From NCBI GenBank assembly GCA_040390725.1, contig JAZJXT010000006.1:64367-128366 (forward strand): a stretch of DNA of 64,000 nucleotides, read 5' to 3'. A model generated the notes under the pieces. The model saw only the letters and a program-made list of their open reading frames with translations, ran no database searches and was not told the DNA's origin. Positions 9,931 to 61,242 of the stretch are shown one piece after another. A program made the position numbers and the translations under genes. This DNA comes from Patescibacteria group bacterium (GTDB lineage Bacteria > Patescibacteriota > Minisyncoccia > Phycocordibacterales > UBA9973). The first letter of the stretch is position 1. Each line of letters opens with the position of its first letter.

Positions 9931-9940
9931 AAATTAGATT

Positions 9941-13804: not shown

Positions 13805-13867
13805 ATATTTTATTTAAATGTTAATAATTAATAATAGAGAAAAAATTATTTATAAATTATTTATAAA

Positions 13868-14134: not shown

Positions 14135-14146
14135 AATGGATAGTAT

Positions 14147-14163
14147 ATACCCCCAGGGGGTAT
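14147..14163. promoter_or_regulatory. candidate CsoR operator (perfect GC-rich inverted repeat)
   Basis: ATACCCCCAGGGGGTAT, a 17-bp perfect palindrome 13 bp upstream of the csoR start; resembles known CsoR boxes (TACCC...GGGTA type). Confidence 0.6.
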
Positions 14164-14243
14164 CTGTCAAGTAAAACAATAATGTCTACTATCCTTACAT
14201 ATGTAGACTTAGTAGACAAAAGAAATAATAATGATTAGTAATT

Positions 14244-14648
14244 TTAATTCACAACCCCTACCCCTTTCATCATAGGATGAATCTTGCAGTGATAACTATA
14301 CGTACCGGAATTTGCAAAAGTAAAACTAAAGGATTCACCCGGAGCGAGTGTCGGTGAATTTAAAAGATTATCAGAATCAGATGTGACTGTGTGTGGAACT
14401 GAATCATTATTCGTCCAAGTAACCTTTATGCCAGCTTTCACTGAAAGAGTAGCTGGATTAAATGCAAAATTTTTCATGCTTACTGATGCTGTTTTTGACT
14501 CTGGAACATTATTACTGACATTATTTACAGGAACGTTACTTTCCGGTGCAGGTGCCAAGGCTTTATTTGCATTATTTTTAAAAGCTAAATCATAAATTAC
14601 AAAACCAATTACTACTATTACCAAAACTATAATTATTTTTTTAGTCAT
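14244..14648 (-). CDS. cupredoxin (plastocyanin/pseudoazurin-like blue copper protein), membrane anchored
   Basis: 134 aa; N-terminal TM; type-1 Cu ligand pattern ...PHTV...YSYHCKIHPMMKG (H...C..H..M). Confidence 0.75.
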   Translation of the reverse strand: MTKKIIIVLVIVVIGFVIYDLAFKNNANKALAPAPESNVPVNNVSNNVPESKTASVSMKNFAFNPATLSVKAGIKVTWTNNDSVPHTVTSDSDNLLNSPTLAPGESFSFTFANSGTYSYHCKIHPMMKGVGVVN

Positions 14649-14671
14649 AAAATTTTAAATTATTAATAATT

Positions 14672-15073
14672 TTACTCGACACGAGCTAAACGCTCTTTTA
14701 TTTTTTCCAAAATATCTTTTAGGCTCCATTGAGACTTTACTAAATAGTATGCGGGCTCGTCTGTAGTAATTTGTTTCATTATTTTTTCTTCATCTGGCGT
14801 CAAATTAGTAAGCAATATAATGGGTACTTTTTTCCCATAATCATTAGATGCACGCAATTTATGCATCATCTCCATCCCATCCATTTTTGGCATTAAAATA
14901 TCCAGCAAAATAAGATCCGGCTTTTTTTCTATAGCCATCGCTAAACCCTGCTCCCCATCCATAGCTTCCAAAGCAATAAAACCTTCGTGCAATAAATTGT
15001 CGCGCAATGCCTCTAGTAGTATATGGTCATCCTCCACTATCAAAATTGTTTTTTGTTTTATATCATCTTCCAT
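14672..15073 (-). CDS. response regulator, receiver domain only
   Basis: 133 aa; LIVEDDHILLEALRDNL, DLILLDILMPKMDGMEM (phospho-acceptor Asp), no output domain. Confidence 0.85.
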   Translation of the reverse strand: MEDDIKQKTILIVEDDHILLEALRDNLLHEGFIALEAMDGEQGLAMAIEKKPDLILLDILMPKMDGMEMMHKLRASNDYGKKVPIILLTNLTPDEEKIMKQITTDEPAYYLVKSQWSLKDILEKIKERLARVE

Positions 15074-20988: not shown

Positions 20989-21178
20989 GTGAGTGGGTAG
21001 CAAAAATCCCACTACCAGAGGTGAAGTCTTACGACTTCCATGCAAGTTTCCCTGCACGACGCACGATACGCACCCTGATAATGGGGTTTCTAGTATCGTG
21101 CAATTTTTTCACCATGCCTCTATTTCTAAAGGTTTAGGCTACTGATTAAGTTGTAAATAAAGGATAACATATTTGTAC
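20989..21178. ncRNA. structured GC-richer element 1 plus conserved 30-bp box (candidate ncRNA / replication-origin element)
   Basis: Nested hairpins (gaagtc-ttac-gacttc; gcacgatac-N23-gtatcgtgc followed by a T-run) at 20989-21110, then the box agttgtaaataaaGgataacatatttGtac at 21149-21178; a diverged second copy lies at 21440-21617. Confidence 0.35.
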
Positions 21179-21439: not shown

Positions 21440-21617
21440 AAAAAAACCCTTTCCGAATACGAAGAAAGAGTTTACGACTATATATCTTTCCCCGTATGGG
21501 GCTGAATTTAGCACCGTTGCCTTTTGGCTGGTTGCTGGTAGGTCATAGAGTCAGTACTCTCGCTACACTCTCGATAATTCCCTATTTAGTTGTAAATAAA
21601 TGATAACATATTTACAA
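21440..21617. ncRNA. structured element 2 plus conserved 30-bp box (second copy)
   Basis: Shares ttacgact and cc(c)gtatgggg hairpin features with element 1; box agttgtaaataaaTgataacatatttAcaa at 21588-21617, 439 bp from the first box. Confidence 0.3.
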
Positions 21618-29956: not shown

Positions 29957-31705
29957 CTAATAAACCTCCTTTTGATAACACTGCTCACAGTAAATAATTT
30001 CTGGACGTTCTGGGGCATAACTTGTTTCAAATTCATTTGGGCAACTTGCCCCGCCTTGGCGTGGGATTCCGCTGTGGTCATGATTTTCTTTCTGACACAT
30101 ACACTGCCTGTGCCAGAGCTTAAATGGATTTCTGCGTTTTATTCTAGCAGCGTGGCGACAGTGAAAACATCTATGCGGAACTGGTATGTTCATTTTTTTA
30201 TAAAAAATTAATTCATTGGGAACAATTTTATAATTCCTCTCACAATCGATACACTTTAAAACTTGCTCTAAAATATCATCACCGACATCTGAAATAGCAT
30301 CCGGAATATTTTCCGGCAATAAAGTTTCTTTACCTGTCGTGCGCTGGGTATTGTCTTGCCACTTAAAACCTCTAGCTAATGCCTGTTCTTTCGTGAGTGG
30401 AAATTCTTCCATCGCTGATGTTTCATTATAACCAAACAAAGAAAGCTCAGCGGGATAAAATTCTCCGTAAGAATATTTGCATCCATTTTTATCAATATAT
30501 GGAATTTCTTCCATTTGTTTTTTTATCTTTTCAACCATTATAAAATAATCTTCTTTGGAGTATTGTTTATTTAAAATACAATAATTTCCTTTTTTCATTG
30601 AAACACAGCCAAATAAATTTTTAGAAGAATGACAATGTTGCGTATAATGCAACTCTTGGCTTTTCACAGAAAAAATTCCAAACAAATTTAACTGAGAATG
30701 ATCAACGGTCACACCGTCATAGCATTCCGTCATTTCACCGGCCGTTGATAAATCATAAGAATTGGTAGGTTTTGCGCAACCATCCATAAATCTGCAATTT
30801 TCAGGTTGTTGAGTGGAAAAAACATCTTTGGAATCTTTGCCATTAAAAATCAAATCCCCTGTGCAATTTTTACTTTGAATAATATAGGCATACCGACGAG
30901 GATAACTCAAAAGAAATTCTTTAAATTCTTTTTTAGCTCTTTCCGTGCCAGCATAAGTATCAAGTTTATATTCTGCTAAAATTTTTTCATAATCTTCTTT
31001 TGTGTATCTTTGATTTTTAAAACAATACTTTTCATTGCGAAGTCCTGTGCACATAAAACAATTCGTACAACCGCGACAATCATACATAAAAGATGAATCA
31101 ACACATGAAATACATAATTGCGCATATTTTAAACGATAAGAACTTTCACAATTAATACATTCATATAGCCATTCTGCTTTATCCATTATATACATGCAGT
31201 CCATCATGTCTTTTGCTCCATAAAGCATATAAGTGCTATACATTATGTTTTCAATTTGCCAAGAATAAAATACCATATAACAATTCTTTGCAAACCAGCA
31301 ATCGTGCGTCCATTGGCAATTTAAACTGGCAATGCCATCATCATTTACAGTGGCGACTTGAGGAACACGTTTTAGTAATTCAAGAAATTGTGTAAAAAAG
31401 GGTTTTGAAAAATCATAATCTTGCGCATAACTTTTTGGATCCCATTTATCTCCAAACCAACATTTATTGCAGTAAACAGTAATGCCTGAATCCGGAGAAT
31501 ATAAAGTAATGCCTGACTTATTACACAATGCACAAGGACGACTATAAAATGAAAGATTATTGCGCCAAGTAAAACGCCTTTGCATTCTGCATCTCGGACA
31601 AAAAGTCGGTGGAGGGACTTTTACCTTTTCATAAAAACCAAAATCATTCGGCTCGATAATAAAGTCGCTGTTACAGTTCTGACATGTTTTAGTTTCACTT
31701 TGCAT
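29957..31705 (-). CDS. large cytoplasmic Cys-rich protein with N- and C-terminal zinc-ribbon-like motifs (paralog 1 of 3); family not recognised
   Basis: 582 aa; N-term C-x2-C-x22-C-x2-C (CQNCNSDFIIEPNDFGFYEKVKVPPPTFCPRCR); C-term homologous ribbon (CIDCERNYKIVPNELIFYKKMNIPVPHRCFHCR); conserved core cluster C-x2-C-x7-DCRGC-x2-C-x2-C; tail NEFETSYAPERPEIIYCEQCYQKEVY identical in all three paralogs. Confidence 0.7.
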   Translation of the reverse strand: MQSETKTCQNCNSDFIIEPNDFGFYEKVKVPPPTFCPRCRMQRRFTWRNNLSFYSRPCALCNKSGITLYSPDSGITVYCNKCWFGDKWDPKSYAQDYDFSKPFFTQFLELLKRVPQVATVNDDGIASLNCQWTHDCWFAKNCYMVFYSWQIENIMYSTYMLYGAKDMMDCMYIMDKAEWLYECINCESSYRLKYAQLCISCVDSSFMYDCRGCTNCFMCTGLRNEKYCFKNQRYTKEDYEKILAEYKLDTYAGTERAKKEFKEFLLSYPRRYAYIIQSKNCTGDLIFNGKDSKDVFSTQQPENCRFMDGCAKPTNSYDLSTAGEMTECYDGVTVDHSQLNLFGIFSVKSQELHYTQHCHSSKNLFGCVSMKKGNYCILNKQYSKEDYFIMVEKIKKQMEEIPYIDKNGCKYSYGEFYPAELSLFGYNETSAMEEFPLTKEQALARGFKWQDNTQRTTGKETLLPENIPDAISDVGDDILEQVLKCIDCERNYKIVPNELIFYKKMNIPVPHRCFHCRHAARIKRRNPFKLWHRQCMCQKENHDHSGIPRQGGASCPNEFETSYAPERPEIIYCEQCYQKEVY

Positions 31706-31720
31706 AACCCCATTATATCA

Positions 31721-33415
31721 CTAATAAACCTCCTTCTGATAACACTGCTCGCAGTAAATAATCTCCGGGCGTTCGGGTGCATAACTTGTTTCAAATTCGT
31801 TTTTGCATCCATTATTCATACACTGCCTGTGCCAGAGTTCGCGTGGATTTCTTATCGCAAATCTTTCCTCCCTTCTGCAGGCCGGGCATTTTTGCGGAAT
31901 AGGCATTCCTGTTGCTCGATAAAAAGAAAGTTCGAGGTTTACTATACGAAAAGCGGTGGAACAATTCGGCGATATATTTACGGTACTATTATTTTGAGAA
32001 GAACACTTTATTATTTGTCCCAAAATATCGTCTGTTGTTTCATTTATGGTTTTAGGAATTTGCGCCGTTTCCATGGTAATTTGGTAATTTCTTTCAGGGC
32101 GGTCATACCAAGCATACCCCGCTTTTAATGCTTCGTCTTTTGAAAGTGGGAAGTAATCATAAGCCACAGACTCATTGTATGCAAATGGCGCTATTATTTT
32201 TGGATCAAAAAACTCTCCCCACTCGCCTGTTTTTTTCATATGCTCTATAATTTTTTCTTTGAGCACAAAATATTCTTCTTTTGAATATTTTTTATTTAAA
32301 ATACAATACTCCTTCTGACGCAAACCCATACAGCCAAAGCATTCCGACAAGGTATTGCACATATCACAATAATAAGAATCACTCATATGAAAAGAACTGC
32401 GAATTGAAATTGAATTTCTTATAAAGGCACACCCTTGAATTTGATATGATAGCTCATTGCTTAAAATTTCTGTTATATCACGGCAGTCTTCTGCTTCCCA
32501 TGCATCCTGCAAATAAGCAGTATCTTTATTTCTTCTGCAATTAAAACTTTCTTTTGTGTTGGCTGTATTCTCCAAATAATCTCCTGAAAAATTAACATTA
32601 TTTGACCCGTGATAATATTTTTTCGGCAAACTTAAAGAAAGTTTTTTTATTTCTTTTTTTGCCCACTCAATATTTTCATGATTCCATAAAAAACTTTTTA
32701 ATTTATTTTGATATTCTTCCGGGGAAAGCTGTTTATTAAACCAGCAATTACTTTTGTTTCGCAAATTTACGCACCCAAAACAATTATTGCATCCTCTACA
32801 ATCTTCGGAAAAATAACAAGAAACACAATTTGAGCAATCTTTTAAATAAGATGACTTGGAACATCTAGCGGAACTCATGCACTCATAAGAATATTCAAAT
32901 TTCTCAACCATATAACAATCGGAACAAAAATAACAATCCTCTTGATACCAATTTCCATACATGCATTTTTCACTACCGTTTGTAGCAGACACCATATAGC
33001 AATCTTTATTATTTTGTAGCTGATTTGAATATTCACAATTTTCATTATTTGATCCTACTAATGCCACATGTGGCACAACATCATGTAAGTCTTTAAATTG
33101 CTCAAAAAACGGACGGGAAAAATCAAAATCCCTGCCGAAAGTAGATGCTTCCCATTTATCGCTCCACCAGCATTCATGGCAATACACCGGAAAAATTACA
33201 TCATCTCGATATATTGAAATAATATTTTTTTTGCATAAATCGCAAGTCCTTTTATTTAAACTCCATTCATTTCTATTTAAAAGTCTTTTGATATAACGAC
33301 ACTCTGGGCAAAAAGTCGGTGGAGGGACTTTTACCTTTTCATAAAAACCAAAATCATTCGGCTCGATAACGAAATCTTTTTTACAGCTTTGGCAATTTCT
33401 GTTTTCACTTTGCAT
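31721..33415 (-). CDS. large cytoplasmic Cys-rich zinc-ribbon protein (paralog 2 of 3)
   Basis: 564 aa; same N-terminal and C-terminal motifs and identical 26-aa tail; divergent central region; 15-bp spacing to paralog 1. Confidence 0.7.
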   Translation of the reverse strand: MQSENRNCQSCKKDFVIEPNDFGFYEKVKVPPPTFCPECRYIKRLLNRNEWSLNKRTCDLCKKNIISIYRDDVIFPVYCHECWWSDKWEASTFGRDFDFSRPFFEQFKDLHDVVPHVALVGSNNENCEYSNQLQNNKDCYMVSATNGSEKCMYGNWYQEDCYFCSDCYMVEKFEYSYECMSSARCSKSSYLKDCSNCVSCYFSEDCRGCNNCFGCVNLRNKSNCWFNKQLSPEEYQNKLKSFLWNHENIEWAKKEIKKLSLSLPKKYYHGSNNVNFSGDYLENTANTKESFNCRRNKDTAYLQDAWEAEDCRDITEILSNELSYQIQGCAFIRNSISIRSSFHMSDSYYCDMCNTLSECFGCMGLRQKEYCILNKKYSKEEYFVLKEKIIEHMKKTGEWGEFFDPKIIAPFAYNESVAYDYFPLSKDEALKAGYAWYDRPERNYQITMETAQIPKTINETTDDILGQIIKCSSQNNSTVNISPNCSTAFRIVNLELSFYRATGMPIPQKCPACRREERFAIRNPRELWHRQCMNNGCKNEFETSYAPERPEIIYCEQCYQKEVY

Positions 33416-33430
33416 ATTTTTGTAAAAATT

Positions 33431-33646
33431 TTAAATATAAAAATCTCTATCGGAGATAGCGGATTGCCTGATAATTGAATGCATCGTTCCAACAGGAATT
33501 TCTTTTTTATTCGCCGGAACGATAACGGTCAGAACTTTTCTTTCATATTTTCTATATTTTATATGGCTTCCGTTTTGAGAAATAAAAATAAAACCGTTCT
33601 TTTCTAAAATTTTTACTACTTGCCTTGAAGAAAAAAGTTTAGGCAT
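33431..33646 (-). CDS. hicA: HicA-family mRNA interferase toxin
   Basis: 71 aa; SRQVVKILEKNGFIFISQNGSHIKYRK fits the HicA/YcfA pattern (KxxExxGxxxxRxxGSHxxY). Confidence 0.7.
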   Translation of the reverse strand: MPKLFSSRQVVKILEKNGFIFISQNGSHIKYRKYERKVLTVIVPANKKEIPVGTMHSIIRQSAISDRDFYI

Positions 33647-33857
33647 ATTTTAAATCCATAGAAAATATTTCCGGGCTTCTGACTTCTTGGAATTTTGGAG
33701 CTTTAACATCTTCAAAATAAAGATCAATGGCTTCGCTCAAGTTTTTCAATGCTTCTTTTTTAGTTTTTCCAAAACTTGAAACATCAACATTTAAACACTG
33801 AGAAACATAGTATTTTCCCTCTTTCCAAACTATATTTTTAAGATTAAAATTCTTCAT
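33639..33857 (-). CDS. hicB: HicB-family antitoxin
   Basis: 72 aa; overlaps hicA by 8 bp; EGKYYVSQCLNVDVSSFGKTKKEALKNLSEAIDLYFE matches the HicB N-domain consensus. Confidence 0.65.
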   Translation of the reverse strand: MKNFNLKNIVWKEGKYYVSQCLNVDVSSFGKTKKEALKNLSEAIDLYFEDVKAPKFQEVRSPEIFSMDLKYA

Positions 33858-33895
33858 ATATTAATAATACCAAAAATCTAAAAACAAGTAAATAT

Positions 33896-35596
33896 CTAAT
33901 AAACCTCTTTCTGATAACACTGCTCACAATATATAATTTCTGGTCTTTCGGGCGCATAACTGGTTTCAAATTCATTTTGACATTTGCTTTGATGTTCATG
34001 ATTTTCTTTTTCACACATACACTGCCTGTGCCAAAGTTTATTTGGTCCACGATTTTTTACTCGTCTTGTATGCCTGCATTCGGGACAATTCCTAGGAATT
34101 GGTATTTCCATTCTTTTATAAAAAGAAAGTTCATCCACAATGATACGATAATTTTTATTGCATTCTACGCAAATAAAAACTTCTTTACCAACATCAAAAT
34201 CCGCCGACAAATCTTTTATTCCATCTGGAAAATTTTTCCAATCCACCGTCTCTTTGCCATAAGTCCCCCGCGGAGTATCTTCCCATTTAAAACCTTTTTC
34301 CAAAGCTTGTTCTTTTGTTAATGGAAATTGTTCCATAACACAAGCTTCATTGTAACCAAAACACGAAAGACTAGCTGGGAAAAAATCTCCGTATTCTCCT
34401 TTTTCTTTCATCTGATTTACTATTTTTTCTTTTAAAATTTTATATTCCTCCGGAGAATATTGTTTATTTAAAATACAATATTTTTTCTGACGCATGCCAA
34501 TGCAACCGAAAAGTTCTTGCGAACCCAGACAGTGAAAAGAATATTCCGCAAATGAAGTCCCCCATGTGAGCAAAGTAACAATATTATTCGAAGCTTCTTG
34601 CCCTGAATTCACACATTGATAATTATTAGTAGAAACACGCCCGACTGTATCGCAATCCATATTGTCTTTTGCATTTCTCCAAGCATGCACGCAATATCTG
34701 CAATCTTCTGCTTCATAAGAGTGAAAACAGTGGTGATTATTTTTAACATTAGTCATATAATTTCCGGTAGAATTTACAACATTAAAAACTTCAGCGAATT
34801 TTCTAGGCTTGTCTTTTATAAAATTTTGAAATTCTTTTTTAAAATTTTCTACGCCGGAAAAAGTATCGAGACGAAAAGATTTTAATTTATTTTCATAATC
34901 TTCTTTGGAATATTTTACATTAAAAATACAATGTGATTGCTGGCGTAAATTGATACAACCTAGGCAACTCGTACATCCACGACAATCAAGTAAAAAAGAA
35001 CTATCTATGCAACTATGACATCCTTTTGAAAAACGAAGGTTGTTACAATCAAAACAATCATCAACTTCGTAAGACAATTCAACTTTATTTGTAAAAGCGC
35101 AATCCACTAATTCTTTTGAAAGCTGAATCCAATAACAATTTGTGCAATTTTCATTATTAGAACTTTCAACAATCATATAACAATTTTTATTGTCGGCAGA
35201 AATATTTATATATTCTGAATTTACGCTGCGCACGTGCATCAACCCGATTCTCGGCACAACATTCCAAAGTTCTTCAAATTGTTCTAAAAAAGTTCTATTC
35301 AAATCATATTCTTTTGCATAGTCCTCTCCTCCCCAGCCATCGGCATTCCAACAATCATTACACCATACAGTGTAAGGTTTGTTCGGACTATACATTGAGA
35401 CTTTATCTTTTTTGCATTTATCACAAGCTCTTTTATAAAAAGTTCTTTCATTTCTAAAAGACAATCGCAACTGCGCTCTGCATTCCGGACAAATTTTTGG
35501 CGGAAGCACACCCATTTTTTCATAAAATCCAAAATCATTCGGCTCGATGACAAAATCTTTTTTACAATTTTGGCATACCTTGTTTTCAGCTTGCAT
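33896..35596 (-). CDS. large cytoplasmic Cys-rich zinc-ribbon protein (paralog 3 of 3)
   Basis: 566 aa; same architecture and identical C-terminal tail; starts 5 bp after the rluA stop. Confidence 0.7.
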   Translation of the reverse strand: MQAENKVCQNCKKDFVIEPNDFGFYEKMGVLPPKICPECRAQLRLSFRNERTFYKRACDKCKKDKVSMYSPNKPYTVWCNDCWNADGWGGEDYAKEYDLNRTFLEQFEELWNVVPRIGLMHVRSVNSEYINISADNKNCYMIVESSNNENCTNCYWIQLSKELVDCAFTNKVELSYEVDDCFDCNNLRFSKGCHSCIDSSFLLDCRGCTSCLGCINLRQQSHCIFNVKYSKEDYENKLKSFRLDTFSGVENFKKEFQNFIKDKPRKFAEVFNVVNSTGNYMTNVKNNHHCFHSYEAEDCRYCVHAWRNAKDNMDCDTVGRVSTNNYQCVNSGQEASNNIVTLLTWGTSFAEYSFHCLGSQELFGCIGMRQKKYCILNKQYSPEEYKILKEKIVNQMKEKGEYGDFFPASLSCFGYNEACVMEQFPLTKEQALEKGFKWEDTPRGTYGKETVDWKNFPDGIKDLSADFDVGKEVFICVECNKNYRIIVDELSFYKRMEIPIPRNCPECRHTRRVKNRGPNKLWHRQCMCEKENHEHQSKCQNEFETSYAPERPEIIYCEQCYQKEVY

Positions 35597-46366: not shown

Positions 46367-48532
46367 ATGCAAAATTTTAGAAAACAAAAGAATAAAAAAA
46401 ACCAGCAAGGATTCATCGCGCTCTTGGCCACAGTCATCATCGGACTTACTCTTTTATCTATGGTCGCGCGTGAAGGTTATGCCGGATGGCACGCGCGTTT
46501 TAATGTCTTGGGAACAGAATCAAAAGAACAAGCGACAGCCCTAGCAGACGGATGTATTGATGAAGCTTTGCTTTCACTCTTGGGTGGTTTCCCTTATCAA
46601 GCCGGCACGACTATTGCTTCACCGATTGGTGACTGTAAAATTTTCCCGATAGACACGGCTACTTCCGGCTATGCTACTTTAAAAGCGCAATCACAAGTAA
46701 ATGATTCATATTCAAATATCTCTGTGGCAATAAATACAAATGACGTTCACTTGGGCTCTATTCCTTCCAATCCAAACTCCGGTACTTTAATAATTCAAAC
46801 ATTGATGGGTAGCGGCGTCAGCACAAAAAATCCCAGCGATTTTACGATGCGCGTATCAGGAATTTCTCCTTCCAAAACTTCTTTTGCCGGATCGGCTGCA
46901 GGCATAGTGGTATATGTATCACCAGGATCCTATAGCATTACCGAAGATGCACTTTCCGGATACAAAGAAAATGGCACAATTGACTGTGCGGGCACAGTCA
47001 GCGGAGGAGACATAAAATCCTGCACTTTTACAAATACTCCCGTCACCACAACTTTCACTCTAGTCGCAAACGTTACAAATAAATATAATGGTTCCTTAAA
47101 ACCTTCCAACTTTCCTCTTTTAATTGATGGCACTCAAGTTGTTTTAGGAAAAGCAAACACTGTCACCACTGGCGCTCACACTGCAAGCATCAGCCAAAGT
47201 TTTCTTACTCAATACAAATACAATGCTTCGACTTGGGGGTATGATTGTGCCAAAACAACATATCCAGATGGGACAAAAGGAACAGTCACTTTAAATACCG
47301 GAGACAACCTGACTTGCGTAGTAAATATTTATGACAACCCCCCGCCGGCACCTGTCTGTGCCAACACAATGATAATGATAGACCGCACCGGCAGTATGGC
47401 TACTATTAATGGCAGTCTTGTGGACTTGCAAAATGCCGGAGTGGCTGCAAGTAGCCTAAAGGATCTTTATGCTTCAGTTAATCCAAACCTTCCAAGACCA
47501 TACCTGGGTATCGGTTCAAATGGTGGACTCGGAATAATAGATAGTTCAACAGCTTCTGTACCAAATAATTCCCCTGCAGGTATAAGAGGATTTTTAACCA
47601 CTACTTATGGCGACCTAGCCAACGCTATAAGTGAAATGGTAAAAGATACCAGCTGCAACAACTCCGGAGGCTCAGGAGGAGATGGTTGCACTAATCTTAG
47701 TTCGGCTATAAATGTGGCTGCAAGTGAACTAAATAATCCTGTATTGGGACCAGGTATCCTTTCCGCAAATGGCAAAGCCAAACAAAAAGTTTTAATTTTA
47801 CTTTCTGATGGTTACACCACGATACCTACCGGAAATTCTACAGAAGAAACTGTTTTTCTTTCTCCAACTAGTAATACAAATGATTCTACCGGTACCAACT
47901 TTGTTAATCCAACAAATGCTTATACAAATACTGATGCCGGAGCATCAGCTTCCGGTGTAATGGGTTCAGGAAATACCAGACAACGATATTCTAATTTTAA
48001 TTTATCTTATCCGACAGACGCTACAAGTCTTTCCGGGATAGAAGTGGATGTAGATGCGAGAGCAGTGAGTACGACTAGCTCTGTGACTACAAACCCGAAT
48101 GGCCTCGGCAATTTTACTACTTGGTCAGTGACCGGCACATCAAATAAAACTACAGCTGTCTCTGATGCTAGTAATGCAACTTTTGTAAATAAAACTTTCA
48201 GCGCGCAAACTTTCTCTGTGGCTGGTGCCGGTGTCCCATCAGATGCAAGTATTATTTCCGTCACTGTAAATGTAGTCGCTGCAGAAAATAATGGCGATGC
48301 GAGCATTCAAATGATGGAAGAAAATGGCTCAGCGCAAGCACTAGAAGGCACAGTTCATAATTTGGCAAATACATTTACGACTTATAGCTGGACCACTACG
48401 ACGAATGCATCCGGCGGAGCTTGGACAGCATCAGAAGTAAATAATTGGACGAATAAATTCGGAGTTTATCAATCCAGCGCCGGAGGTGTAGCATTGGTTT
48501 CAAAATTATACGTAACCGTCAACTACCATTAA
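46367..48532 (+). CDS. pilin-like protein with von Willebrand factor A domain (pilus-associated adhesin)
   Basis: N-terminal QQGFIALLATVIIGLTLL pilin-like hydrophobic segment; vWA MIDAS motif MIMIDRTGSM...LLSDG; C-terminal domain shared with the giant protein (EVNNWTNKFGVYQS). Confidence 0.65.
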   Translation: MQNFRKQKNKKNQQGFIALLATVIIGLTLLSMVAREGYAGWHARFNVLGTESKEQATALADGCIDEALLSLLGGFPYQAGTTIASPIGDCKIFPIDTATSGYATLKAQSQVNDSYSNISVAINTNDVHLGSIPSNPNSGTLIIQTLMGSGVSTKNPSDFTMRVSGISPSKTSFAGSAAGIVVYVSPGSYSITEDALSGYKENGTIDCAGTVSGGDIKSCTFTNTPVTTTFTLVANVTNKYNGSLKPSNFPLLIDGTQVVLGKANTVTTGAHTASISQSFLTQYKYNASTWGYDCAKTTYPDGTKGTVTLNTGDNLTCVVNIYDNPPPAPVCANTMIMIDRTGSMATINGSLVDLQNAGVAASSLKDLYASVNPNLPRPYLGIGSNGGLGIIDSSTASVPNNSPAGIRGFLTTTYGDLANAISEMVKDTSCNNSGGSGGDGCTNLSSAINVAASELNNPVLGPGILSANGKAKQKVLILLSDGYTTIPTGNSTEETVFLSPTSNTNDSTGTNFVNPTNAYTNTDAGASASGVMGSGNTRQRYSNFNLSYPTDATSLSGIEVDVDARAVSTTSSVTTNPNGLGNFTTWSVTGTSNKTTAVSDASNATFVNKTFSAQTFSVAGAGVPSDASIISVTVNVVAAENNGDASIQMMEENGSAQALEGTVHNLANTFTTYSWTTTTNASGGAWTASEVNNWTNKFGVYQSSAGGVALVSKLYVTVNYH

Positions 48533-48539
48533 AATTAAA

Positions 48540-51500
48540 ATGAAATTATTTAAAAAATTAAATTTAATATCACATATTACAATTCTAATAATATTAGGAT
48601 TTGGCTTAATTTCATTTTCTCAAAATGCTTTAGCATCAGCTACTGTGACTGCAGGATTAGGTGGGTCTACAATATCAGCTGATACTAATATCACAAACGG
48701 CACATCGGCAACTTGGACAAATATTTCTACTACTAATCCTACCATAACAGAAGGTTCTTTCGGTGATATTGGATTAGGCACAATTATTTTAAACGCTCCA
48801 AGCGGTTTTCAATTTAATACAACAAGCTCTGTAACGGCAACCGTAACAACAAATGGTAATTGTAGTTCCGGAACTTCAGTAAAATTAAATAGTTCTTTAT
48901 CTCAGACCGTTACTCCGGCAACAGGTACAATCACAATAAATGTGTCACAAGTTTCAAGTGGTTCTGGAAGTGCTTGTAAAAGTATTATTACTTACACAGG
49001 AATAAAAGTCCGCCCATCAACCGGCACTCCGCTCGCATCCGGCAACATTACTAAAAGTTCTTCTTCAACTTCTACAATATCCGGTGTCACAAACGGCTCG
49101 ACAAATTTTGGAACTCTTACTGAATCTGCCGGAGCAGTTTCCGCAGTTTCTGTTTCTCCTGCAAGCCCGACTGTTGCTTCCGGATCAACTCAACAATTCA
49201 CTGCGACTGCCACTGACACTTATGGAAATACATTATCAGGACAAACTTTTACTTGGTCTATAACTAGTGGCCCAGGCAGTATAAATTCAAGCGGACTTTT
49301 TTCTGCTACAACAGCAGGAACTTCTACGGTAAAAGCTTTGGACGGCGCAACTGTTTTCGGAACTGCTACCATTACAACGACTACTGCTCCTGATTTAACT
49401 GCTGGAGCAACCAGCCCGACGACTAGCACCGCAGGTGCAACACAAACTTTCAGTTCTACAATTTCAAACTCCGGTACAGCTTCTACCGGAGCTGGCTTTA
49501 CAACTCTCTTTCAAAAAGCAAATGACTCTATCGGTACTGGAGCAGTTGATGTCGGAACATATGCAAATACCACAATCACCGCAGGTGGAACACAGACTGC
49601 AACTCTTTCGTATGTTTTACCAAATACTGTAGGCACTATATATATGCGAGCTTGCGCTGACAAAAGCTCAATGGCGGACACTGGAACAATTACAGAATCA
49701 AATTCCGGAGGGACAGGAGAAAGTAATAACTGCGGAGCTTGGACGGCGGTCACTTTAACAGCCGGAACTTTAGATCACTTTGCTTTTTCAAATGTCGGCA
49801 CTCAAGTTGCCGGTACGCCTTTCAATGTTACTATAACAGCACAAGATGTAAACAATAATACAGTGACAAGTTATACAGGCTCTACTGCTAAAGTAAATTT
49901 CACGGTTACTAGTGGAACAATTTCACCGACGCAATCCAGCACGTTTACTTCCGGAGTACTTACCAATCAATCCATTACTTTAACCGGCACAAACTCTGCT
50001 ATGATCATAACTGCGACGGATAACGGAGGTACAGGAAAAACTGGAACTTCAAATTCGTTTACAGTAAATGCTGGAGCAGTTTCTGCCATCACAGTATCTC
50101 CCTCTTCAGCCTCATTCACAGCTGGCTCTTCATCTACTCAACAATTTACAGCAACAGCAAAAGATGCAAATAATAATACAAGATCAGGAGATAGTTTTAC
50201 TTGGTCAATAACTGCTGGTGGAGGAAGTATTACTTCGGGAGGAGTTTACACGTCAGGAAATACTGCAGGGAATTTTACTGTAACAGCTACTGACGGAGCA
50301 GTTTCTGGAACTGCTACTGTGACAATCACAGCCGGCGCAGTCGCAAACGTTACCGTCTCCCCCGCAAGTGCGACTGTTACTGCCGGTTCTACTCAACAAT
50401 TTACCGCGACAGCCAGAGACTCCGGTGGAAATACCGTCTCAGGACAAACTTTTACTTGGTCAGTCAGTGGAGGACTGGGCACAATAAGTTCAACTGGTTT
50501 ATACACAGCCAAAACTGCCGGAACATTTACAGTCACAGCTACAGATAATTCTATTTCCGGAAATGCTTCAGTAACTGTAAATGCTGGAACATTTACTAAA
50601 TTGCAAATACTTCTTCCTGGAGAGACAGCTTCCGCGGGAAGTTCTACGGGAAAAACTGGGACACCTTCTGCTCAAACTGCAGGCGTTTCATTTTCAGTCA
50701 TAGTAAATGGAGTTGATGCAAACTGGAATGTTGTAAGTTCTGCAATAGATACCGTAAGTATTACTTCTACAGATGGTAGTGCAACACTACCGGTAACGTC
50801 TGCATTAATAGGAGGCACAAAAACTTTTTCTGTAACACTAAATACAGTCGGAACAAAAACAATTACCGCGAGTGATACTGTATCCCACAGTGGTATCACT
50901 GCAAACACTTCACCATCAATAACTGTAAATGCCGGAGTAGTCGCTACAGTAACCGTCTCCCCTGCATCAACATCTGTCACACAGGGCTCAATAACAACAA
51001 CTCAATTCACCGCTACATCAAAAGATTCTGCAGGTAATACAATTTCTGGAGACACTATAAATTGGTCAGTGAGTACAAATGGAGGTTCGATTACTTCTGG
51101 AGGACTTTACACACCCAGCACCACTGCAGGCTCGTACACAATTACAGCTACTGACGGATCTGTTTCCGGAACTGCAACTGCGACAATAAATGCAGCACCT
51201 GATTTAACAATCGGCGCAATAAATCCAACTTCAGTAAATGCAGGGTCTGCTCAAACTTACACTGCAACAATCACAAACCTGGGAGGTGGTTCCACTGGAG
51301 CAACATTTACAACTCTCTTCCAAAGCGCAACTGATGCAAATGGAACAGGAGCTGTAGACTTAGGCACTGATGCCGATGCAATTTTATCCGGAGGCGGAAC
51401 ACAAGCAACAACATTTTCATATACAAATAATACTGCAGGAACTTTCTATATGCGTGCTTGCGCTGATAAAAGTTCCGCTGGAAATGCAGGTGTAATTTCA

Positions 51501-54149
51501 GAATGGAATTCCGGAGGAACAGGTGAATTAAATAACTGCGGGGCATGGACTGCTATCACAGTCAATGCTGGAGCATTTAGTAAACTACAATTACTAGTCC
51601 CAGGTGAAACTGCAAATCCTGGTAGTGCAACTGGAAAAACTGGAACCCCAACAACAGAAACTGCCGGCATACCTTTTAACGTGACAGTTAATGCAGTGGA
51701 TGCAAACTGGAATGTTGTCAGTTCAACACATACAATAAAAATAACTTCGAGCGATGGTGCAGCTACTCTGCCTGTAAACTCTGCATTAATTTCCGGAACA
51801 AAAAATTTCACTATTACTTTAAATACTTACACCAGTAAAACTTGGACAATCACTGCGACAGACGTGACTGATGGCACAAAAACTGCAAACACTTCCCCAG
51901 GCATAAGTATAAACCGCGGACTTGATCACTTTTCTTTCGCAACTATCGCAGACCAAACGACCGGCGTATCTTTCCCGATTACAATCACAGCAAAAGATTC
52001 TCAAAATAATACTGTCACTGGATTTGCCGGCAGTGTAAATTTAACCACCAATGATACTTCTATCACTCCGACTGTGTCTGGAATATTTTCAAGTGGAGTA
52101 GCTACTGTTTCTGCGGTGACATTAACAGGCACAGGAGCTTCAAAAACAATCACTGCCACAGATGCAGCCGGAACAGGCATAGTGGGAACTTCAAATACTT
52201 TCAGAGTTTACTATCCTGTCACTTCCACATCCCCTCTTTCACCGACGACAACAGGTAATTTAAATAGTTGGTATCTTTCCGGTTCAGCTCCGACAAAACA
52301 ATCCGCACTAGCAGACATTGACGATACGACTTTTATTTCTTTCGGACCGGACGCGCAAACTTTCACAATGACAAATAGCACAATACCACCAGGAGCAAAT
52401 ATCCTCGGTGTAACACTAAATGTCACCGCAGCAAAACCAACAGGAGGCGCGACTACAAGCATGCAAATGATCGCAGAAAATGGCACAGGCGCAAATCAAC
52501 AAATCATAGACGGCACAGTGCGAACACTTACAAAGACTTTCACCAATTACAGCTGGAACATACCGACGATGCCGGATGGATCACCTTGGACATTAGCGGA
52601 AGTAAATAATTGGACGACAAAATTCGGAATCCTAAAATCAAATTTCACCGGCACAGCAGAGGTCAGCAAAGTCTGGGTATCAGTCGCCTACTCTACTACT
52701 TCATCCACGCCGAGCTGTAAATTGGGAGTGGATCTTTCTGGAGATGGAGGATTGACTTGGGGAAATGAACAAACAACCGCGTCCCTTTCCACCACTAATC
52801 AGACTTATGTCTTAGGTGGAAGTGGAGATACTTGGGGCAATGGTTCTGGATGGAATGCCACAAACCTTGCAAATGGAAAATTTATAGCCAGAGTCCACGC
52901 GGTAAATTATGGAAATAGTTGTTCGAGCACTGATGTTGATTACTTAGATTGGATTCGACTAAAAGCAACTTTCAAAGTAGACATAGCGAGACAGCTAGCT
53001 TTACAGGCAGCCGATGCGGCAAAAAAAGCCACGACTACTCCGATAGATATATTTAGTATTTATTTTGATTCCAGTAAATTCGCAAATGGAAATGGACTGA
53101 CAAATGCAAATCTTTTAGCGTCTATCGCTTCCGGAAGTACTCCAAACGTTCCTTACCAAAATGGTTCAGCAAATAATATTGCAGGAGTAATATCCGACTC
53201 AGACATTGCTGTGCCCCTTGTCTCTGCTGTGTCTCCTAGTGAATGGACAAATCCGGACAATGCTCTCACCAGTGCCTCATATGCCACTAGTAGTACGGGT
53301 CAACAACAAGGTTATACAGGCTTTGGTTTTAATGTTCCGCCCGTAGCGACTATTACAGGAATAGAAGCAGATATGTCAGCATTCAATACAAATGGTGGTG
53401 ACATTAAAGCAGAAATTTCAACAGACGGGGGAACAACTTATACTAATACTTCTGCCTTGCCAGGATACGCAACTGCGACTCTGACCGGTACGGCAAAAAG
53501 TGTATCAATAGGAGGAACAGGAAAACTTTGGGGAAGAAATAATTGGATCTCAAGTGATTTCAATACAGGCAACGTAGTTCTTAAACTTATAAATGATGCA
53601 TCAGGTGGAACAATTTCAGTCAATCAAATAAAAATAAAAGTTTATTATACCGTTGACTCAGCAAATGCTGATGGTGACAATTTCTTCATTGCTCCAAATT
53701 CGAGTAACATTACAGATATTTTCAATTTCATAGGAGAACAAGTTTGCCCTGCCCTGCTTTACACAGCTCAAGCTCCCCCTCCAACCACTGCTACAATTAC
53801 TACAATAGTTCGCACTATTAATTCAAATTCCGGCACTAAACAATCCAGTAATTTTTCTGTAAATGTAAATCCAACTTCACAATCAACGACTACTTTCTCA
53901 GGGTCTGATACCCCGGGCACAAGTACTGTTATAAATCCAGACACTTATACTGTCTCAGAAAGCCCAATGACTGGGTACACCGAAAGCTTTGGCGCAGGTT
54001 GCATAGCTGATGGCACTACAGATTACCCTACCCTAATCGCCGGAGAAACTCGTGTATGTATTATTACCAATAACGACATTCCTGCCCCACCCCCTCCTCC
54101 AAACCTCAACATCATCCCATCTACCTGGCAGGAAATACCGACCCAATAG
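48540..54149 (+). CDS. giant secreted adhesin with many bacterial Ig-like (Big_2-type) repeats
   Basis: 1869 aa; signal/TM N-terminus; repeated V(S/T)VSPASxTVxAGSTQQFTATAxDxxGNTxSGQTFTWS modules; Ser/Thr/Gly-rich; C-terminal region homologous to the 46367 gene C-terminus. Confidence 0.75.
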   Translation: MKLFKKLNLISHITILIILGFGLISFSQNALASATVTAGLGGSTISADTNITNGTSATWTNISTTNPTITEGSFGDIGLGTIILNAPSGFQFNTTSSVTATVTTNGNCSSGTSVKLNSSLSQTVTPATGTITINVSQVSSGSGSACKSIITYTGIKVRPSTGTPLASGNITKSSSSTSTISGVTNGSTNFGTLTESAGAVSAVSVSPASPTVASGSTQQFTATATDTYGNTLSGQTFTWSITSGPGSINSSGLFSATTAGTSTVKALDGATVFGTATITTTTAPDLTAGATSPTTSTAGATQTFSSTISNSGTASTGAGFTTLFQKANDSIGTGAVDVGTYANTTITAGGTQTATLSYVLPNTVGTIYMRACADKSSMADTGTITESNSGGTGESNNCGAWTAVTLTAGTLDHFAFSNVGTQVAGTPFNVTITAQDVNNNTVTSYTGSTAKVNFTVTSGTISPTQSSTFTSGVLTNQSITLTGTNSAMIITATDNGGTGKTGTSNSFTVNAGAVSAITVSPSSASFTAGSSSTQQFTATAKDANNNTRSGDSFTWSITAGGGSITSGGVYTSGNTAGNFTVTATDGAVSGTATVTITAGAVANVTVSPASATVTAGSTQQFTATARDSGGNTVSGQTFTWSVSGGLGTISSTGLYTAKTAGTFTVTATDNSISGNASVTVNAGTFTKLQILLPGETASAGSSTGKTGTPSAQTAGVSFSVIVNGVDANWNVVSSAIDTVSITSTDGSATLPVTSALIGGTKTFSVTLNTVGTKTITASDTVSHSGITANTSPSITVNAGVVATVTVSPASTSVTQGSITTTQFTATSKDSAGNTISGDTINWSVSTNGGSITSGGLYTPSTTAGSYTITATDGSVSGTATATINAAPDLTIGAINPTSVNAGSAQTYTATITNLGGGSTGATFTTLFQSATDANGTGAVDLGTDADAILSGGGTQATTFSYTNNTAGTFYMRACADKSSAGNAGVISEWNSGGTGELNNCGAWTAITVNAGAFSKLQLLVPGETANPGSATGKTGTPTTETAGIPFNVTVNAVDANWNVVSSTHTIKITSSDGAATLPVNSALISGTKNFTITLNTYTSKTWTITATDVTDGTKTANTSPGISINRGLDHFSFATIADQTTGVSFPITITAKDSQNNTVTGFAGSVNLTTNDTSITPTVSGIFSSGVATVSAVTLTGTGASKTITATDAAGTGIVGTSNTFRVYYPVTSTSPLSPTTTGNLNSWYLSGSAPTKQSALADIDDTTFISFGPDAQTFTMTNSTIPPGANILGVTLNVTAAKPTGGATTSMQMIAENGTGANQQIIDGTVRTLTKTFTNYSWNIPTMPDGSPWTLAEVNNWTTKFGILKSNFTGTAEVSKVWVSVAYSTTSSTPSCKLGVDLSGDGGLTWGNEQTTASLSTTNQTYVLGGSGDTWGNGSGWNATNLANGKFIARVHAVNYGNSCSSTDVDYLDWIRLKATFKVDIARQLALQAADAAKKATTTPIDIFSIYFDSSKFANGNGLTNANLLASIASGSTPNVPYQNGSANNIAGVISDSDIAVPLVSAVSPSEWTNPDNALTSASYATSSTGQQQGYTGFGFNVPPVATITGIEADMSAFNTNGGDIKAEISTDGGTTYTNTSALPGYATATLTGTAKSVSIGGTGKLWGRNNWISSDFNTGNVVLKLINDASGGTISVNQIKIKVYYTVDSANADGDNFFIAPNSSNITDIFNFIGEQVCPALLYTAQAPPPTTATITTIVRTINSNSGTKQSSNFSVNVNPTSQSTTTFSGSDTPGTSTVINPDTYTVSESPMTGYTESFGAGCIADGTTDYPTLIAGETRVCIITNNDIPAPPPPPNLNIIPSTWQEIPTQ

Positions 54150-58853: not shown

Positions 58854-59285
58854 ATGAAAGAAAATAAAATACAAATAAATTTTAAAAAAATATTAAATAA
58901 TGCAGGACTAAAAAACACCCTGCCAAGACTCACCGTGCTGAAAATACTTTCAGAGACAAAACATCCAAAAACAACAAAAGATATATTTAATAAACTTAAG
59001 AAAAATGATATCGACTTAGTTACTTTATACAGAACACTATCTTCTTTTGAAGAAAAGAAAATTATAAAAAGAGTGGATTTACAAAAAGATGCTGTGTATT
59101 ACGAATTAAATACCGACCACCATCATCACATTATATGCACTAATTGCGATAAGGTGGCAGATTTTGTAGATGAAAACCACGAGAAACTTATCACTAAAGC
59201 CTTAGCGCAAGTTAAAAACTTCAAGTCAATAACCAGTCACTCTTTCGACCTATTCGGTATTTGCAATTCTTGCTCAGCAAAGTAA
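58854..59285 (+). CDS. zur: Fur-family transcriptional regulator (Zur-like)
   Basis: 143 aa; DNA-binding helix LPRLTVLKIL; metal sites HHHHIICTNCDKV and CNSC; downstream of znuABC. Confidence 0.8.
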   Translation: MKENKIQINFKKILNNAGLKNTLPRLTVLKILSETKHPKTTKDIFNKLKKNDIDLVTLYRTLSSFEEKKIIKRVDLQKDAVYYELNTDHHHHIICTNCDKVADFVDENHEKLITKALAQVKNFKSITSHSFDLFGICNSCSAK

Positions 59286-59545
59286 AAATATGTGAATTTA
59301 TTTTAATCCTAACTCGCTCGAAATCAATAAAGTGTGAGGCAAGACCTCGCACAAATCTTTTGGTGGGACTGGCAAATGACTGGAACAAATACCCATAAAA
59401 TGATAAAATCATTTTATGAATCGAGATTTGCCACAAAATTGAGAAATCTTATAACAAAATACCCAGACAAAATATTTTACTTAGATATAAATGACTGGAA
59501 AATGCGTATTAAGCAAATTGTTCTTTAAAAAATTAACAAAAGGAA

Positions 59546-59575
59546 AACGCCGTACAGGCCGGCGTTTTCTAAGGA
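59546..59575 (+). terminator. rho-independent terminator
   Basis: AACGCCG-tacaggc-CGGCGTT followed by TTCT. Confidence 0.55.
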
Positions 59576-59739
59576 CACTATTAGTATAGCAAGAGGGTAT
59601 TTTTTGTCAAATTTTTTAAATTCGGGAAAAGCTTATAAAATAAGGATTTTATAAGCTCATGACTTACCGAAAGTTGGTATACTTTATTTTAAAAAAACTA
59701 ATTTGCCCATATTTTGTATTTTTTATATAATTAAAATAT

Positions 59740-60762
59740 ATGGATTTACTTATAAACATATACGGTACGAAAGTTAGTTGCACAAAAGAACGCATTGTAT
59801 TATCTTTTCCAAAAACCAAAGGCATCTCAAGAAAAAAGGAAGAATATCCTATTAGACAAATTGAAAAAATAATTATTATTCGCGCTTCTTCTATCACAAT
59901 GCATGCCGTAAAGTTAGCGCTAGACAATGACGTTGATATATCTTTTTTGGGAAGATTCGGCAAACCGATAGGAAGATTTTTATCGAGCGAGCCGAAAGGT
60001 TTGGCTTCAATACGAAGAGCTCAACTTGAAGTTGCGATTTCTCCTGAACAATCCTTTGATTTCGCAAAATTATTCATAAAAATAAAATGTGAAAACCAAA
60101 TAGCTCAAATGTATAATTGGGCTGGAAAATATGGAAAAAATCTTACAAATGAAATAGGACAAGCAAAAGCGATGCTGGACAACATAGATGGCATTCCGGC
60201 GGGCAAAAAAGACAGAGACCAACTCCGAGGAATAGAAGGACGAATAGCCACACGTTATTTTTCAGCTTTAAGAAAATTTTTTATTTTCCCTGGAAGGAAA
60301 CCGCAAGGCAAAGACAAATTTAATAATGCCGTAAATTATGGATATGGATTTATATATAACGAAATAGAAAAAGCATGCTTTGATGCTGGACTTGATCCGA
60401 GTGTCGGACTTCTTCATGCTGAAGGATACAGTAAATCTTCTTTGGTATATGATCTAATTGAAGAATTTAGGGTGCCTGCTGTTGATTCTGTAATATTCCC
60501 TCTTTTTATGGAACTAAAAATTGACCGCCAAAAATGTTTTGAAAGAGTTAGTAAATATGAATACAGACTTTCCACTGAAGGAAAATCCGTGATAGCTTCT
60601 GCTGTGCTTACTCGGTTAAATGAAAAATTTTTATGGAAAGGTAAAAATTTATTTCTAAAAGATATCATCAAAGAACAATCTCGCTCCATTGCTCGCGCTT
60701 TTTTAGGAAAAGAAATATACACTCCTTTCAAATTTAAACCATTATATTCGCCACTAAGATGA
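59740..60762 (+). CDS. cas1: CRISPR-associated endonuclease Cas1
   Basis: 340 aa; catalytic E-H-E(D) triad in the canonical contexts LRGIEGRIATRYF, NAVNYGYGFIYNEI...GLDPSVGLLHAEGYSKSSLVYDLIEEFRVPAVD. Confidence 0.8.
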   Translation: MDLLINIYGTKVSCTKERIVLSFPKTKGISRKKEEYPIRQIEKIIIIRASSITMHAVKLALDNDVDISFLGRFGKPIGRFLSSEPKGLASIRRAQLEVAISPEQSFDFAKLFIKIKCENQIAQMYNWAGKYGKNLTNEIGQAKAMLDNIDGIPAGKKDRDQLRGIEGRIATRYFSALRKFFIFPGRKPQGKDKFNNAVNYGYGFIYNEIEKACFDAGLDPSVGLLHAEGYSKSSLVYDLIEEFRVPAVDSVIFPLFMELKIDRQKCFERVSKYEYRLSTEGKSVIASAVLTRLNEKFLWKGKNLFLKDIIKEQSRSIARAFLGKEIYTPFKFKPLYSPLR

Positions 60763-61055
60763 ACAATATTTCTTCTGCAACTCTTATAAGCTGGGAAACT
60801 CGCAACATGAAAAAACATATTAAGGCAATAAGCTATTGTAAAGATTATGGACTGCACCCAATTCTTGGCAATCTTTTTATTGGTAAACTATTAGTAAAAG
60901 AGAGGAAAACAATCCTTACTAATTTAAAAAAAATCTTTACTAAAAAAACTGATAAGGTCTTTTCAGGTGTATTTTGTGAATCATGTTTTAATAACCTTGA
61001 ACAACCCATAAAAAATACAGTTCCTATTTTACCGGCCTTTAAAATAATAAGCTAA
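60759..61055 (+). CDS. cas2: CRISPR-associated protein Cas2 (probable)
   Basis: 98 aa; overlaps cas1 by 4 bp (ATGA); Cas2-like spacing of hydrophobic residues and CxxYG (ISYCKDYG); weaker call than cas1. Confidence 0.55.
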   Translation: MNNISSATLISWETRNMKKHIKAISYCKDYGLHPILGNLFIGKLLVKERKTILTNLKKIFTKKTDKVFSGVFCESCFNNLEQPIKNTVPILPAFKIIS

Positions 61056-61242
61056 ATTAGAAAATTATTTTATTTGACAAAATCTACTAAAGTGGAAAAT
61101 AACCTATTATTTCCTGGCTCTTCACTAACCGTGTCGCAAAAAGGATATTGTGTAACCTTACGACGTCTCACCTTACAATATCCGAGACCACAAGGGGGCA
61201 CAAAACCATAAAAGCGGCGACGAGAAATTATTTGTGACTAAA

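Follow-up and report, generated by a model that had tools for sequence, protein, structure and literature searches.

A cas1-cas2 pair followed by a leader and a single repeat

The window analyzed here is a 64-kb stretch of DNA from contig JAZJXT010000006.1 of a Patescibacteria group bacterium; it is the visible part of one 130-kb (130,035-bp) contig. It carries a cas1-cas2 gene pair that an earlier reading of the sequence, hereafter the original prediction, had described as a solitary CRISPR adaptation module with no array or effector in view. We found that the pair is followed by a conserved leader and one CRISPR-type repeat, and that in relatives of this module identical repeats recur with kilobases of DNA between them. 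The features of the module are as follows.

59703-59731, + strand: promoter-like site (TTGCCC, 17 nt, TATAAT) just 5' of the cas1 ATG, called by consensus scan only
59740-60762, + strand: cas1, 340 aa, with Pfam, NCBIfam and PADLOC matches
60759-61055, + strand: divergent cas2, 98 aa, with a 4-nt ATGA overlap with cas1, identified by profile comparison
61056-61119, + strand: leader, with a conserved block at 61074-61119 that aligns with loci L082, L086, L002 and L003
61120-61156, + strand: 37-nt CRISPR-type repeat in single copy, CTTCACTAACCGTGTCGCAAAAAGGATATTGTGTAAC, 64 nt after the cas2 stop
61157-61242, no strand assigned: trailer, from the repeat to the stop codon of a convergent 105-aa gene, with no second repeat

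The original prediction of a clear Cas1 with its catalytic triad was confirmed, and the Cas1 profile searches on which it had staked this call succeeded in Pfam, NCBIfam and PADLOC alike. The product, identical to NCBI MES2023890.1 from a Patescibacteria group bacterium metagenome-assembled genome (MAG), matched Pfam PF01867 (E=2.2e-60), TIGR00287 over the whole model (E=3.4e-66) and, as its best PADLOC model, Cas1b (E=3.6e-68). Residues E166, H226, D238 and E241 were invariant in an alignment of 44 sequences (the window and 43 homologues). The promoter-like site probably serves as the cas1 promoter, and a TTGACA...TATGAT/TATAAT promoter was noted at the matching position in three related loci (L017, L014 and L156).

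The overlapping open reading frame (ORF), which the original prediction had called a probable Cas2, is translationally coupled to cas1 through the ATGA overlap and is annotated by NCBI as an 82-aa 'hypothetical protein V4439_04370'. Single-model searches gave weak matches, with 20.2 bits against Pfam PF09827 (under the 23.8-bit cut-off) and E=3.1e-7 against PADLOC Cas2_II. Profile comparison was decisive: a profile of 19 family members aligned to 13 canonical Cas2 sequences, those encoded beside more distant Cas1 relatives, with an hhalign probability of 98.1% (E=1.3e-13), and its top five matches in the PDB were all Cas2. Two motifs of the window protein, CKDYGL and, at the C terminus, CxSC, also occur in the Cas2 proteins of Micrarchaeota and Methanomicrobia, and the first beta strand of the window protein reads 'WET' instead of the usual 'YDI' at the beta1 Asp position. 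Judged by its profile, the 98-aa ORF is a genuine, if divergent, Cas2.

Purifying selection acts on both genes. The ratio of nonsynonymous to synonymous substitution rates (dN/dS) was 0.08 for cas1 against relatives that are 82-83% identical (range about 0.05-0.15), and for cas2 it was 0.15-0.18 against the two closest relatives and 0.1-0.3 overall; synonymous divergence is saturated, so these values are approximate.

The conserved leader and the repeat both lie within the 187 bp 3' of cas2. The original prediction had seen no array in this ~190-bp region, which was right, but had overlooked both elements. The conserved leader block starts with TTGACA (61074-61079), includes AAAGTGGAAAATAA and ends with GGCT immediately 5' of the repeat. 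GGCT or AGCT directly 5' of the first repeat recurs in most loci and resembles a leader-anchoring sequence. The leader TTGACA may have a promoter role and the leader may drive transcription, although the consensus scan made no call there. A degenerate pattern of the repeat core matched once in the 64 kb, against 0.02 matches expected by chance. Among 60 distinct family repeats, 88% of cells conform to a two-stem hairpin, with modest covariation and many G-U pairs on the cas strand, which hints at a role as RNA or as a single strand; in the window copy the outer stem is degenerate. The repeat core at 61143-61151 has a perfect inverted copy of 9 nt at 61175-61183, 23 nt downstream (GGATATTGT / ACAATATCC). 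The fold of this region is not unusual (z = -1.0), and the inverted copy may be due to chance.

In agreement with the original prediction, three methods found no repeat-spacer array in the 64 kb, and no Cas effector was detected among the 15 larger window ORFs scanned with Pfam and PADLOC. A canonical array has at least two repeats with spacers of ~25-70 nt, and the window has a single repeat, which is best read as an array holding zero inserts. Relative to canonical CRISPR-Cas, then, the locus has Cas1 and Cas2, but no effector or CRISPR RNA processing gene was found among these 15 ORFs, nor is such a family shared within 10 kb by more than a few of 32 relatives.

The repeat accompanies Cas1-Cas2 across the family

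Scanning a single genome for each species yielded 32 related loci (L002-L033) and 48 distant loci. Cas1 of the related loci is 39-66% identical to that of the window, and all except L032 (39%) reach at least 48%. The distant loci, from Micrarchaeota, Methanomicrobia, Chloroflexota and Bacillota, have Cas1 proteins that are 30-35% identical. By the organism labels on the database records, close relatives belong mostly to Patescibacteria lineages, with some Microflora Danica MAGs labelled otherwise, and the family thus appears to be mainly patescibacterial.

Immediately 3' of cas2 or cas1, and on the same strand as these genes, 27/32 related loci have the 25-nt core of the window repeat (up to 6 mismatches allowed); 0/48 distant loci have it. 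Among the remaining five, the repeat is degenerate in L014, L019 and L029, the L007 contig ends where the repeat starts, and the repeat after cas2 is missing only in the 39% outlier L032. The repeat or a degenerate form is thus present in 30/32 loci, or in 31/32 when L007 is counted. Scanning metagenome contigs with the core pattern added 78 loci, several of them with 2-4 copies, and gave no match in 2.9 million viral contigs. ORF clustering of 33 loci returned cas1 and cas2 as the only broadly shared families, and any further gene family within 10 kb of cas1 was common to a few of the 32 relatives at most. Cas1-Cas2 is therefore the one partner that the repeat constantly has. A k-mer scan detected ordinary short-spacer arrays within 10 kb in 0/32 relatives; as a positive control, the same scan recovered arrays at a distance of 1-2 kb from cas1 for the majority of the longer distant loci.

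We assessed whether these data could be accounted for by an ordinary orphan module, the canonical array and effector of which lie, or recently lay, outside the window, the repeat being the remnant of a collapsed array. The strong purifying selection on cas1 and cas2 speaks against this, as do the conservation of leader and repeat down to 48% Cas1 identity, the short-spacer arrays that are missing in the relatives yet present in most longer distant loci, and the lack of an additional common gene family. The explanation draws on the limited extent of the visible DNA, on the degenerate outer stem of the window repeat, on the single repeats of the closest relatives and on the existence of decayed family copies, with cas1 frameshifted or truncated in L027, L028, L030, L031 and L033. 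On balance we consider it unlikely. The window pair is like the orphan cas1-cas2 genes of CRISPR surveys in having neither an effector nor a recognizable array, and standard CRISPR finders and NCBI annotation would register it as one of these; it differs from them in being under selection, in keeping a leader and repeat, and in belonging to a coherent family with long-insert arrays.

Non-CRISPR roles have been proposed for Cas1, and a function of Cas1-Cas2 unrelated to the repeat, for example in DNA repair or of a toxin-antitoxin-like kind, would suit the missing effector. Such a function is very improbable, given that leader and repeat accompany cas1-cas2 throughout the family, whatever the genomic context.

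Repeats were also recorded away from cas genes. In L099 (7101), L139 (4702), L152 (4821) and L110 (10011; oriented coordinates) there is no cas1 within the 4.7-10 kb upstream of the repeat, and the leader-end GGCT or AGCT is kept in L099, L139 and L152. High-GC soil metagenome contigs (L087, L089, L093, L095, L109 and L116, together with L126, L130, L134, L143, L153 and L164) have in common a solitary repeat with a decaying 5' half. It is preceded by a conserved region of ~650 bp with an 86-aa ORF, and it is followed by a conserved flank with a 401-aa ORF that appears phosphofructokinase-like from its sequence. The left flank of these contigs is variable, and cas1 is absent.

Identical repeats separated by kilobase inserts in relatives

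The locus-specific 37-mer was found to recur in 14 loci, in 2 to 8 copies that all lie on the cas strand, and a second, independent repeat tool confirmed the recurring copies. L017, for example, has eight of them at spacings of 177-4044 bp and L016 six at spacings of 1075-2910 bp, while L028 has six and L004 four.

Copies within a locus are 100% identical, save for one L008 copy that is off by 1 nt, whereas repeats differ between genomes; this is what would be expected if one template repeat were copied. Arrays are present in long-read assemblies, including the complete 876-kb chromosome of L017, which makes an assembly artefact unlikely. The 39 non-redundant inter-repeat intervals range from 140 to 4242 bp (median about 1.4 kb) and none is spacer-sized; an additional 8.3-kb interval encloses cas1-cas2 itself. 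No protospacer-adjacent or terminal motif was shared among the insert ends.

The inserts carry ORFs in both directions (62 on the cas strand, 46 opposite) that encode ordinary cellular proteins, including an isochorismatase, a short-chain dehydrogenase, an ATP-grasp enzyme, a CDP-alcohol phosphatidyltransferase, a polyprenyl synthase, a GntR regulator, a methyltransferase and CoiA. Some of these genes end abruptly. An FAD monooxygenase gene (FAD_binding_3) in L016 is cut at a repeat, so that the product covers profile positions 1-220 of 349 and has 244 aa against 350-371 aa in full-length homologues. Across the same repeat lies an unrelated TrwB fragment (profile 214-287 of 387), and an L017 insert encodes a protein kinase without its N-lobe. 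Because genes are cut at repeats and have unrelated genes on the other side, the inserts are independent fragments and not a native stretch invaded by repeats.

Matches to phage families (PHROG) were rare in the inserts. A dispersed palindrome resembling repetitive extragenic palindromic (REP) elements (TCCACGACGGGG...CGTCGTGGACA) was noted in L004 at 9901-9933 and in five more copies, including those at 12405 and 13701 inside inserts. With a GC content like that of the host, a host palindrome within L004 inserts and few phage matches, the insert DNA looks self- or kin-like rather than viral.

The arrays always begin at the leader, which fits integration at the leader junction. Loci L096 and L154, which come from one metagenome, carry two repeat variants: T stands at repeat position 7 in L154 (1432 and 1652; cas-proximal) and in the two upstream copies of L096 (648 and 2623), and C in the two downstream L096 copies (3083 and 4161). 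These variant blocks match addition polarized to the leader end, which is what we suppose for these arrays.

A further question is whether another agent made the inserts, be it phages, insertion sequences or an unlinked recombinase that uses the repeat as an attachment site. Prophage integration can reportedly place large DNA between CRISPR repeats (bioRxiv 10.1101/2020.10.09.333658), and integrons typically hold cassettes of kilobase size with structured sites between them. Yet no integrase, transposase or other family conserved near the arrays was found, the inserts go down to 140 bp and have no common ends, and they carry truncated cellular genes with few phage-family matches. The repeat core was likewise unmatched in the viral contigs, and the identity of the repeats per locus differs from integron cassettes, which bring differing attC sites. 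We regard another agent as quite improbable. Like integrons, the arrays combine an integrase gene, an outward promoter-like leader and a growing row of kilobase segments between short hairpin-forming sites. They differ in that no tyrosine recombinase (IntI) is conserved near them, in that their sites are identical per array where attC sites are cassette-specific, and in that their inserts are random, in both orientations and with some truncated genes, where integrons hold tidy promoterless ORFs.

Comparison with type III-A systems

The nearest typed relative that bears an array is L040, from Methanospirillum stamsii (NZ_CP176366.1), a type III-A system with Cas10, Csm2-5, Cas6 and CARF proteins. 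In the nearest canonical relatives the arrays are ordinary, their spacers measuring 36-41 nt. The 37-nt repeat of M. stamsii, CTTGCATAAGGGTTCCATAAAAAACAAGGACTGCAAC, was compared with the family consensus, CCTGCACAnnnnTGTCGCAAAAAGGAnATTGTGCAAC. Both are 37 nt long with an A-rich center, the ends read CTTGCA...TGCAAC and CCTGCA...TGCAAC respectively, and the orientation relative to cas1 is the same. The type III-A systems of Methanomicrobia also have a Cas1 and Cas2 pair, with the Cas2 CKDYGL and CxSC motifs in both groups. They differ from the window family in their Cas1, which is only 31-35% identical, and in possessing effectors, Cas6 and 36-41-nt spacers, against intervals of 140-4242 bp and no effector or Cas6 nearby in the family. 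The homology of the repeats indicates that the family repeat is a genuine derivative of a CRISPR repeat and that the long inserts are a derived trait. The family would thus probably descend from type III-A-like systems, from which it would have taken its adaptation module and its repeat. On the other hand, the best PADLOC model for the window Cas1 is Cas1b, and the Cas1 identity to those systems is low.

Possible mobility of the cas unit

The closest relatives of the window module, 82-83% identical, have gene neighborhoods entirely unlike that of the window. In one genome a 1505-bp unit, which extends from ~70 bp upstream of cas1 through the last base of the first repeat, occurs at four places that are 99.7-100% identical with unrelated flanks; one copy is 5'-truncated. 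Neither terminal inverted repeats nor target-site duplications were found at the ends of this unit. One copy of the L004 palindrome forms its left end. In four loci cas1 is preceded on its own strand by a tRNA gene, different in each, the end of which lies 58-68 nt upstream.

L086: tRNA gene at 365-436
L017: tRNA gene at 9849-9923
L014: tRNA gene at 9857-9928
L156: tRNA gene at 275-348

At three of the four, the distance between the tRNA end and the start of the cas1 promoter is at most ~6 nt. By a rough estimate from tRNA gene density, this adjacency is far above chance, and it recalls integrative elements and casposons. Two further observations concern tRNA genes: one lies 179 nt upstream of cas1 in L013, and in L019 the 3' end of a tRNA-Ile is duplicated ~170 nt downstream, like an attachment-site scar. 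The window has no tRNA gene beside cas1, the nearest being 4.7 kb off. Fragments of the cas locus adjoin repeats in L028 and in L106/L120. In L105 the 3' end of cas2 and the leader alone remain before the repeat; with no repeat at the breakpoint, this looks more like a deletion remnant. Overall, the cas1-cas2-leader-repeat unit behaves like a mobile or frequently re-seeded element.

Much of this could be read as the work of a self-mobilizing, casposon-like transposon with Cas2, in which the repeat is a target or end and the inserts are by-products. The four near-identical copies with unrelated flanks, the differing neighborhoods of the closest relatives, the tRNA genes 5' of cas1 and the cas-locus fragments beside repeats, including the partial locus of L105, would all be expected of it. 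The unit ends lack the inverted repeats and target duplications of a transposon, however, no polymerase or other transposon gene was found, and the window itself has no adjacent tRNA gene. The Cas1 family profile also lies nearer to CRISPR Cas1, with the A. fulgidus protein as its top PDB match (4n06; E=1.1e-54, 189 bits), than to the M. mazei casposase (6opm; E=1.4e-37, 133 bits). We consider such a transposon doubtful as the sole explanation, though clearly less so than an orphan module or an outside agent, and it partly overlaps the adaptation-only reading discussed below.

Casposons are reported to link kilobase-scale insertion and target duplication to a Cas1-family integrase, to have a leader-like requirement beside the target and to be associated with tRNA gene ends (PMC4046053, PMC5137440). 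In these respects the window family appears alike. It differs in having no family-B DNA polymerase (there are no conserved neighbor genes), no terminal inverted repeats or target-site duplications at the ends of the 1505-bp unit, a Cas2, a Cas1 nearer to the CRISPR clade, and inserted DNA that is arbitrary and not the element itself.

Genomic neighborhood of the module

The window is AT-rich, with ~32-44% GC along the 64 kb. As the original prediction had it, the module lies between zur and a convergent pil operon. On the 5' side of cas1 are znuA, an ABC transporter ATPase, a permease-like gene and a Fur-family gene (58854-59285; Pfam). On the 3' side is the convergent pilM/pilN-like operon, the PilM and PilN-like identities of which were confirmed. 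No Rfam match was found in the flanks of the cas module. Between the zur region and cas1, a strong GC-rich hairpin at 59543-59569 with T/A runs on either side resembles a bidirectional terminator, and a second hairpin lies at 59332-59352.

A remnant of an NYN-domain (PIN-like nuclease) protein, the C-terminal ~32 residues, was noted at 59421-59516 on the + strand. L016 has a full 206-aa NYN gene ~1.1 kb upstream of cas1, and the remnant shows 56% identity to the end of this gene. We rejected the NYN nuclease as an accessory gene because it is absent from all loci other than the window, where only the remnant is present, and L016.

Elsewhere in the window, the minus strand carries a LOOT RNA at 21023-21140 (RF03000, 77 bits) near a SAM-I riboswitch at 21479-21580 (RF00162, 57 bits). 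Three successive ORFs of 566, 564 and 582 aa at 29957-35596, also on the minus strand, have no match in Pfam or PADLOC. On the plus strand, 46367-54149 encodes a 721-aa protein with a SpaA-like domain followed by an 1869-aa protein with Big_2 and CARDB domains, probably both surface proteins; this region is the GC maximum of the window, at about 0.42-0.44.

Discussion

The locus in the window is best explained as a complete, selectively maintained, effector-less adaptation module consisting of promoter, cas1, cas2, leader and one repeat. Together with its relatives, it suggests that the family is an undescribed offshoot of CRISPR that stores long DNA fragments and not short spacers. The reading that we favor, with some reserve, is an adaptation-only CRISPR derivative, the leader-proximal repeat of which receives long DNA fragments inserted by Cas1-Cas2. 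Canonical Cas1-Cas2 is known for inserting spacers of ~30-40 bp, and the casposases, its transposon relatives, insert whole elements.

In the mechanism that we propose, Cas1-Cas2 would act as a leader-directed integrase that recognizes the leader-repeat junction, and would thereby be the author of the inserts. Its substrates would be long double-stranded fragments, 0.14 to >4 kb in length and unrestricted in sequence, for the most part self- or kin-like DNA of cellular origin. Such a fragment would be joined by its two 3' ends, in staggered fashion, to both borders of the first repeat, and gap repair would then duplicate the repeat. The chemistry of spacer acquisition would thus have been kept, with the ~35-bp length ruler and the interference stage lost, and the window copy would have retained no insert.

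Several points weigh against this account. No direct integration event was observed, and an all-against-all comparison of 113 loci gave no strain pair that differed by one insert plus one repeat. Canonical Cas1-Cas2 complexes measure the length of the prespacer, and no feature found here explains the acceptance of kilobase substrates. The window has one repeat, so that the claims about inserts draw on relatives with 48-66% identity; in the closest relatives (82-83%) the repeat is likewise single, and it is more diverged. Normal arrays were sought in the window and up to 10 kb around cas1 of the relatives, effectors among the 15 larger window ORFs and the gene families shared by those loci. An L006 insert holds an apparently full-length dnaX (13377-14975, - strand) with its start abutting the repeat. 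The GC content of the inserts resembles that of the host, so a foreign origin is not distinguishable and the capture of foreign DNA is not demonstrated. Leader and repeat occur without cas genes in L099, L139 and L152, and the L110 repeat has 10 kb upstream without cas1 or another repeat.

With regard to the original prediction, an orphan or degenerate CRISPR locus had been one of its two alternatives. The degenerate part does not hold, in view of the low dN/dS, the invariant catalytic residues, and the leader and repeat that are kept. The other alternative, a non-CRISPR role for the pair, comes closer, considering the kilobase inserts of the relatives and their lack of normal arrays; the module is still CRISPR-derived and apparently uses its leader and repeat for something other than canonical short-spacer immunity. 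The state that we think most likely is that of a semi-selfish element, confined to adaptation, that now and then duplicates or captures genes; the cell may draw some benefit from it. An integron-like expression platform or immunity by long RNAs is less well supported, because the inserts have random orientations, are truncated in some cases and do not resemble viral DNA. We would give even chances to a broader proposition, namely that this Cas1-Cas2 clade is a stand-alone site-specific integrase that archives kilobase DNA, has shed interference and the ruler, and can re-seed itself at sites such as tRNA ends. It would then be a hybrid, arisen in nature, that combines CRISPR adaptation with traits of casposon and integron.

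We found no description of Cas1-Cas2 arrays with kilobase inserts in the literature searched, which is no proof of novelty. The repeat, the arrays and Cas2 all escape standard CRISPR finders and NCBI annotation, and the family is therefore invisible in databases at present. If the reading that we favor is true, the family would put the machinery of CRISPR adaptation to a new biological use. It would also mean that the spacer-length ruler can be lost, which bears on the origin of CRISPR from casposons, though the family looks derived and not ancestral. Its compact enzyme (340 + 98 aa) could serve for the site-specific insertion or recording of long DNA. Patescibacteria are ultra-small and mostly without CRISPR immunity, and for the 'orphan' cas1-cas2 genes found among them these results would provide a concrete role.

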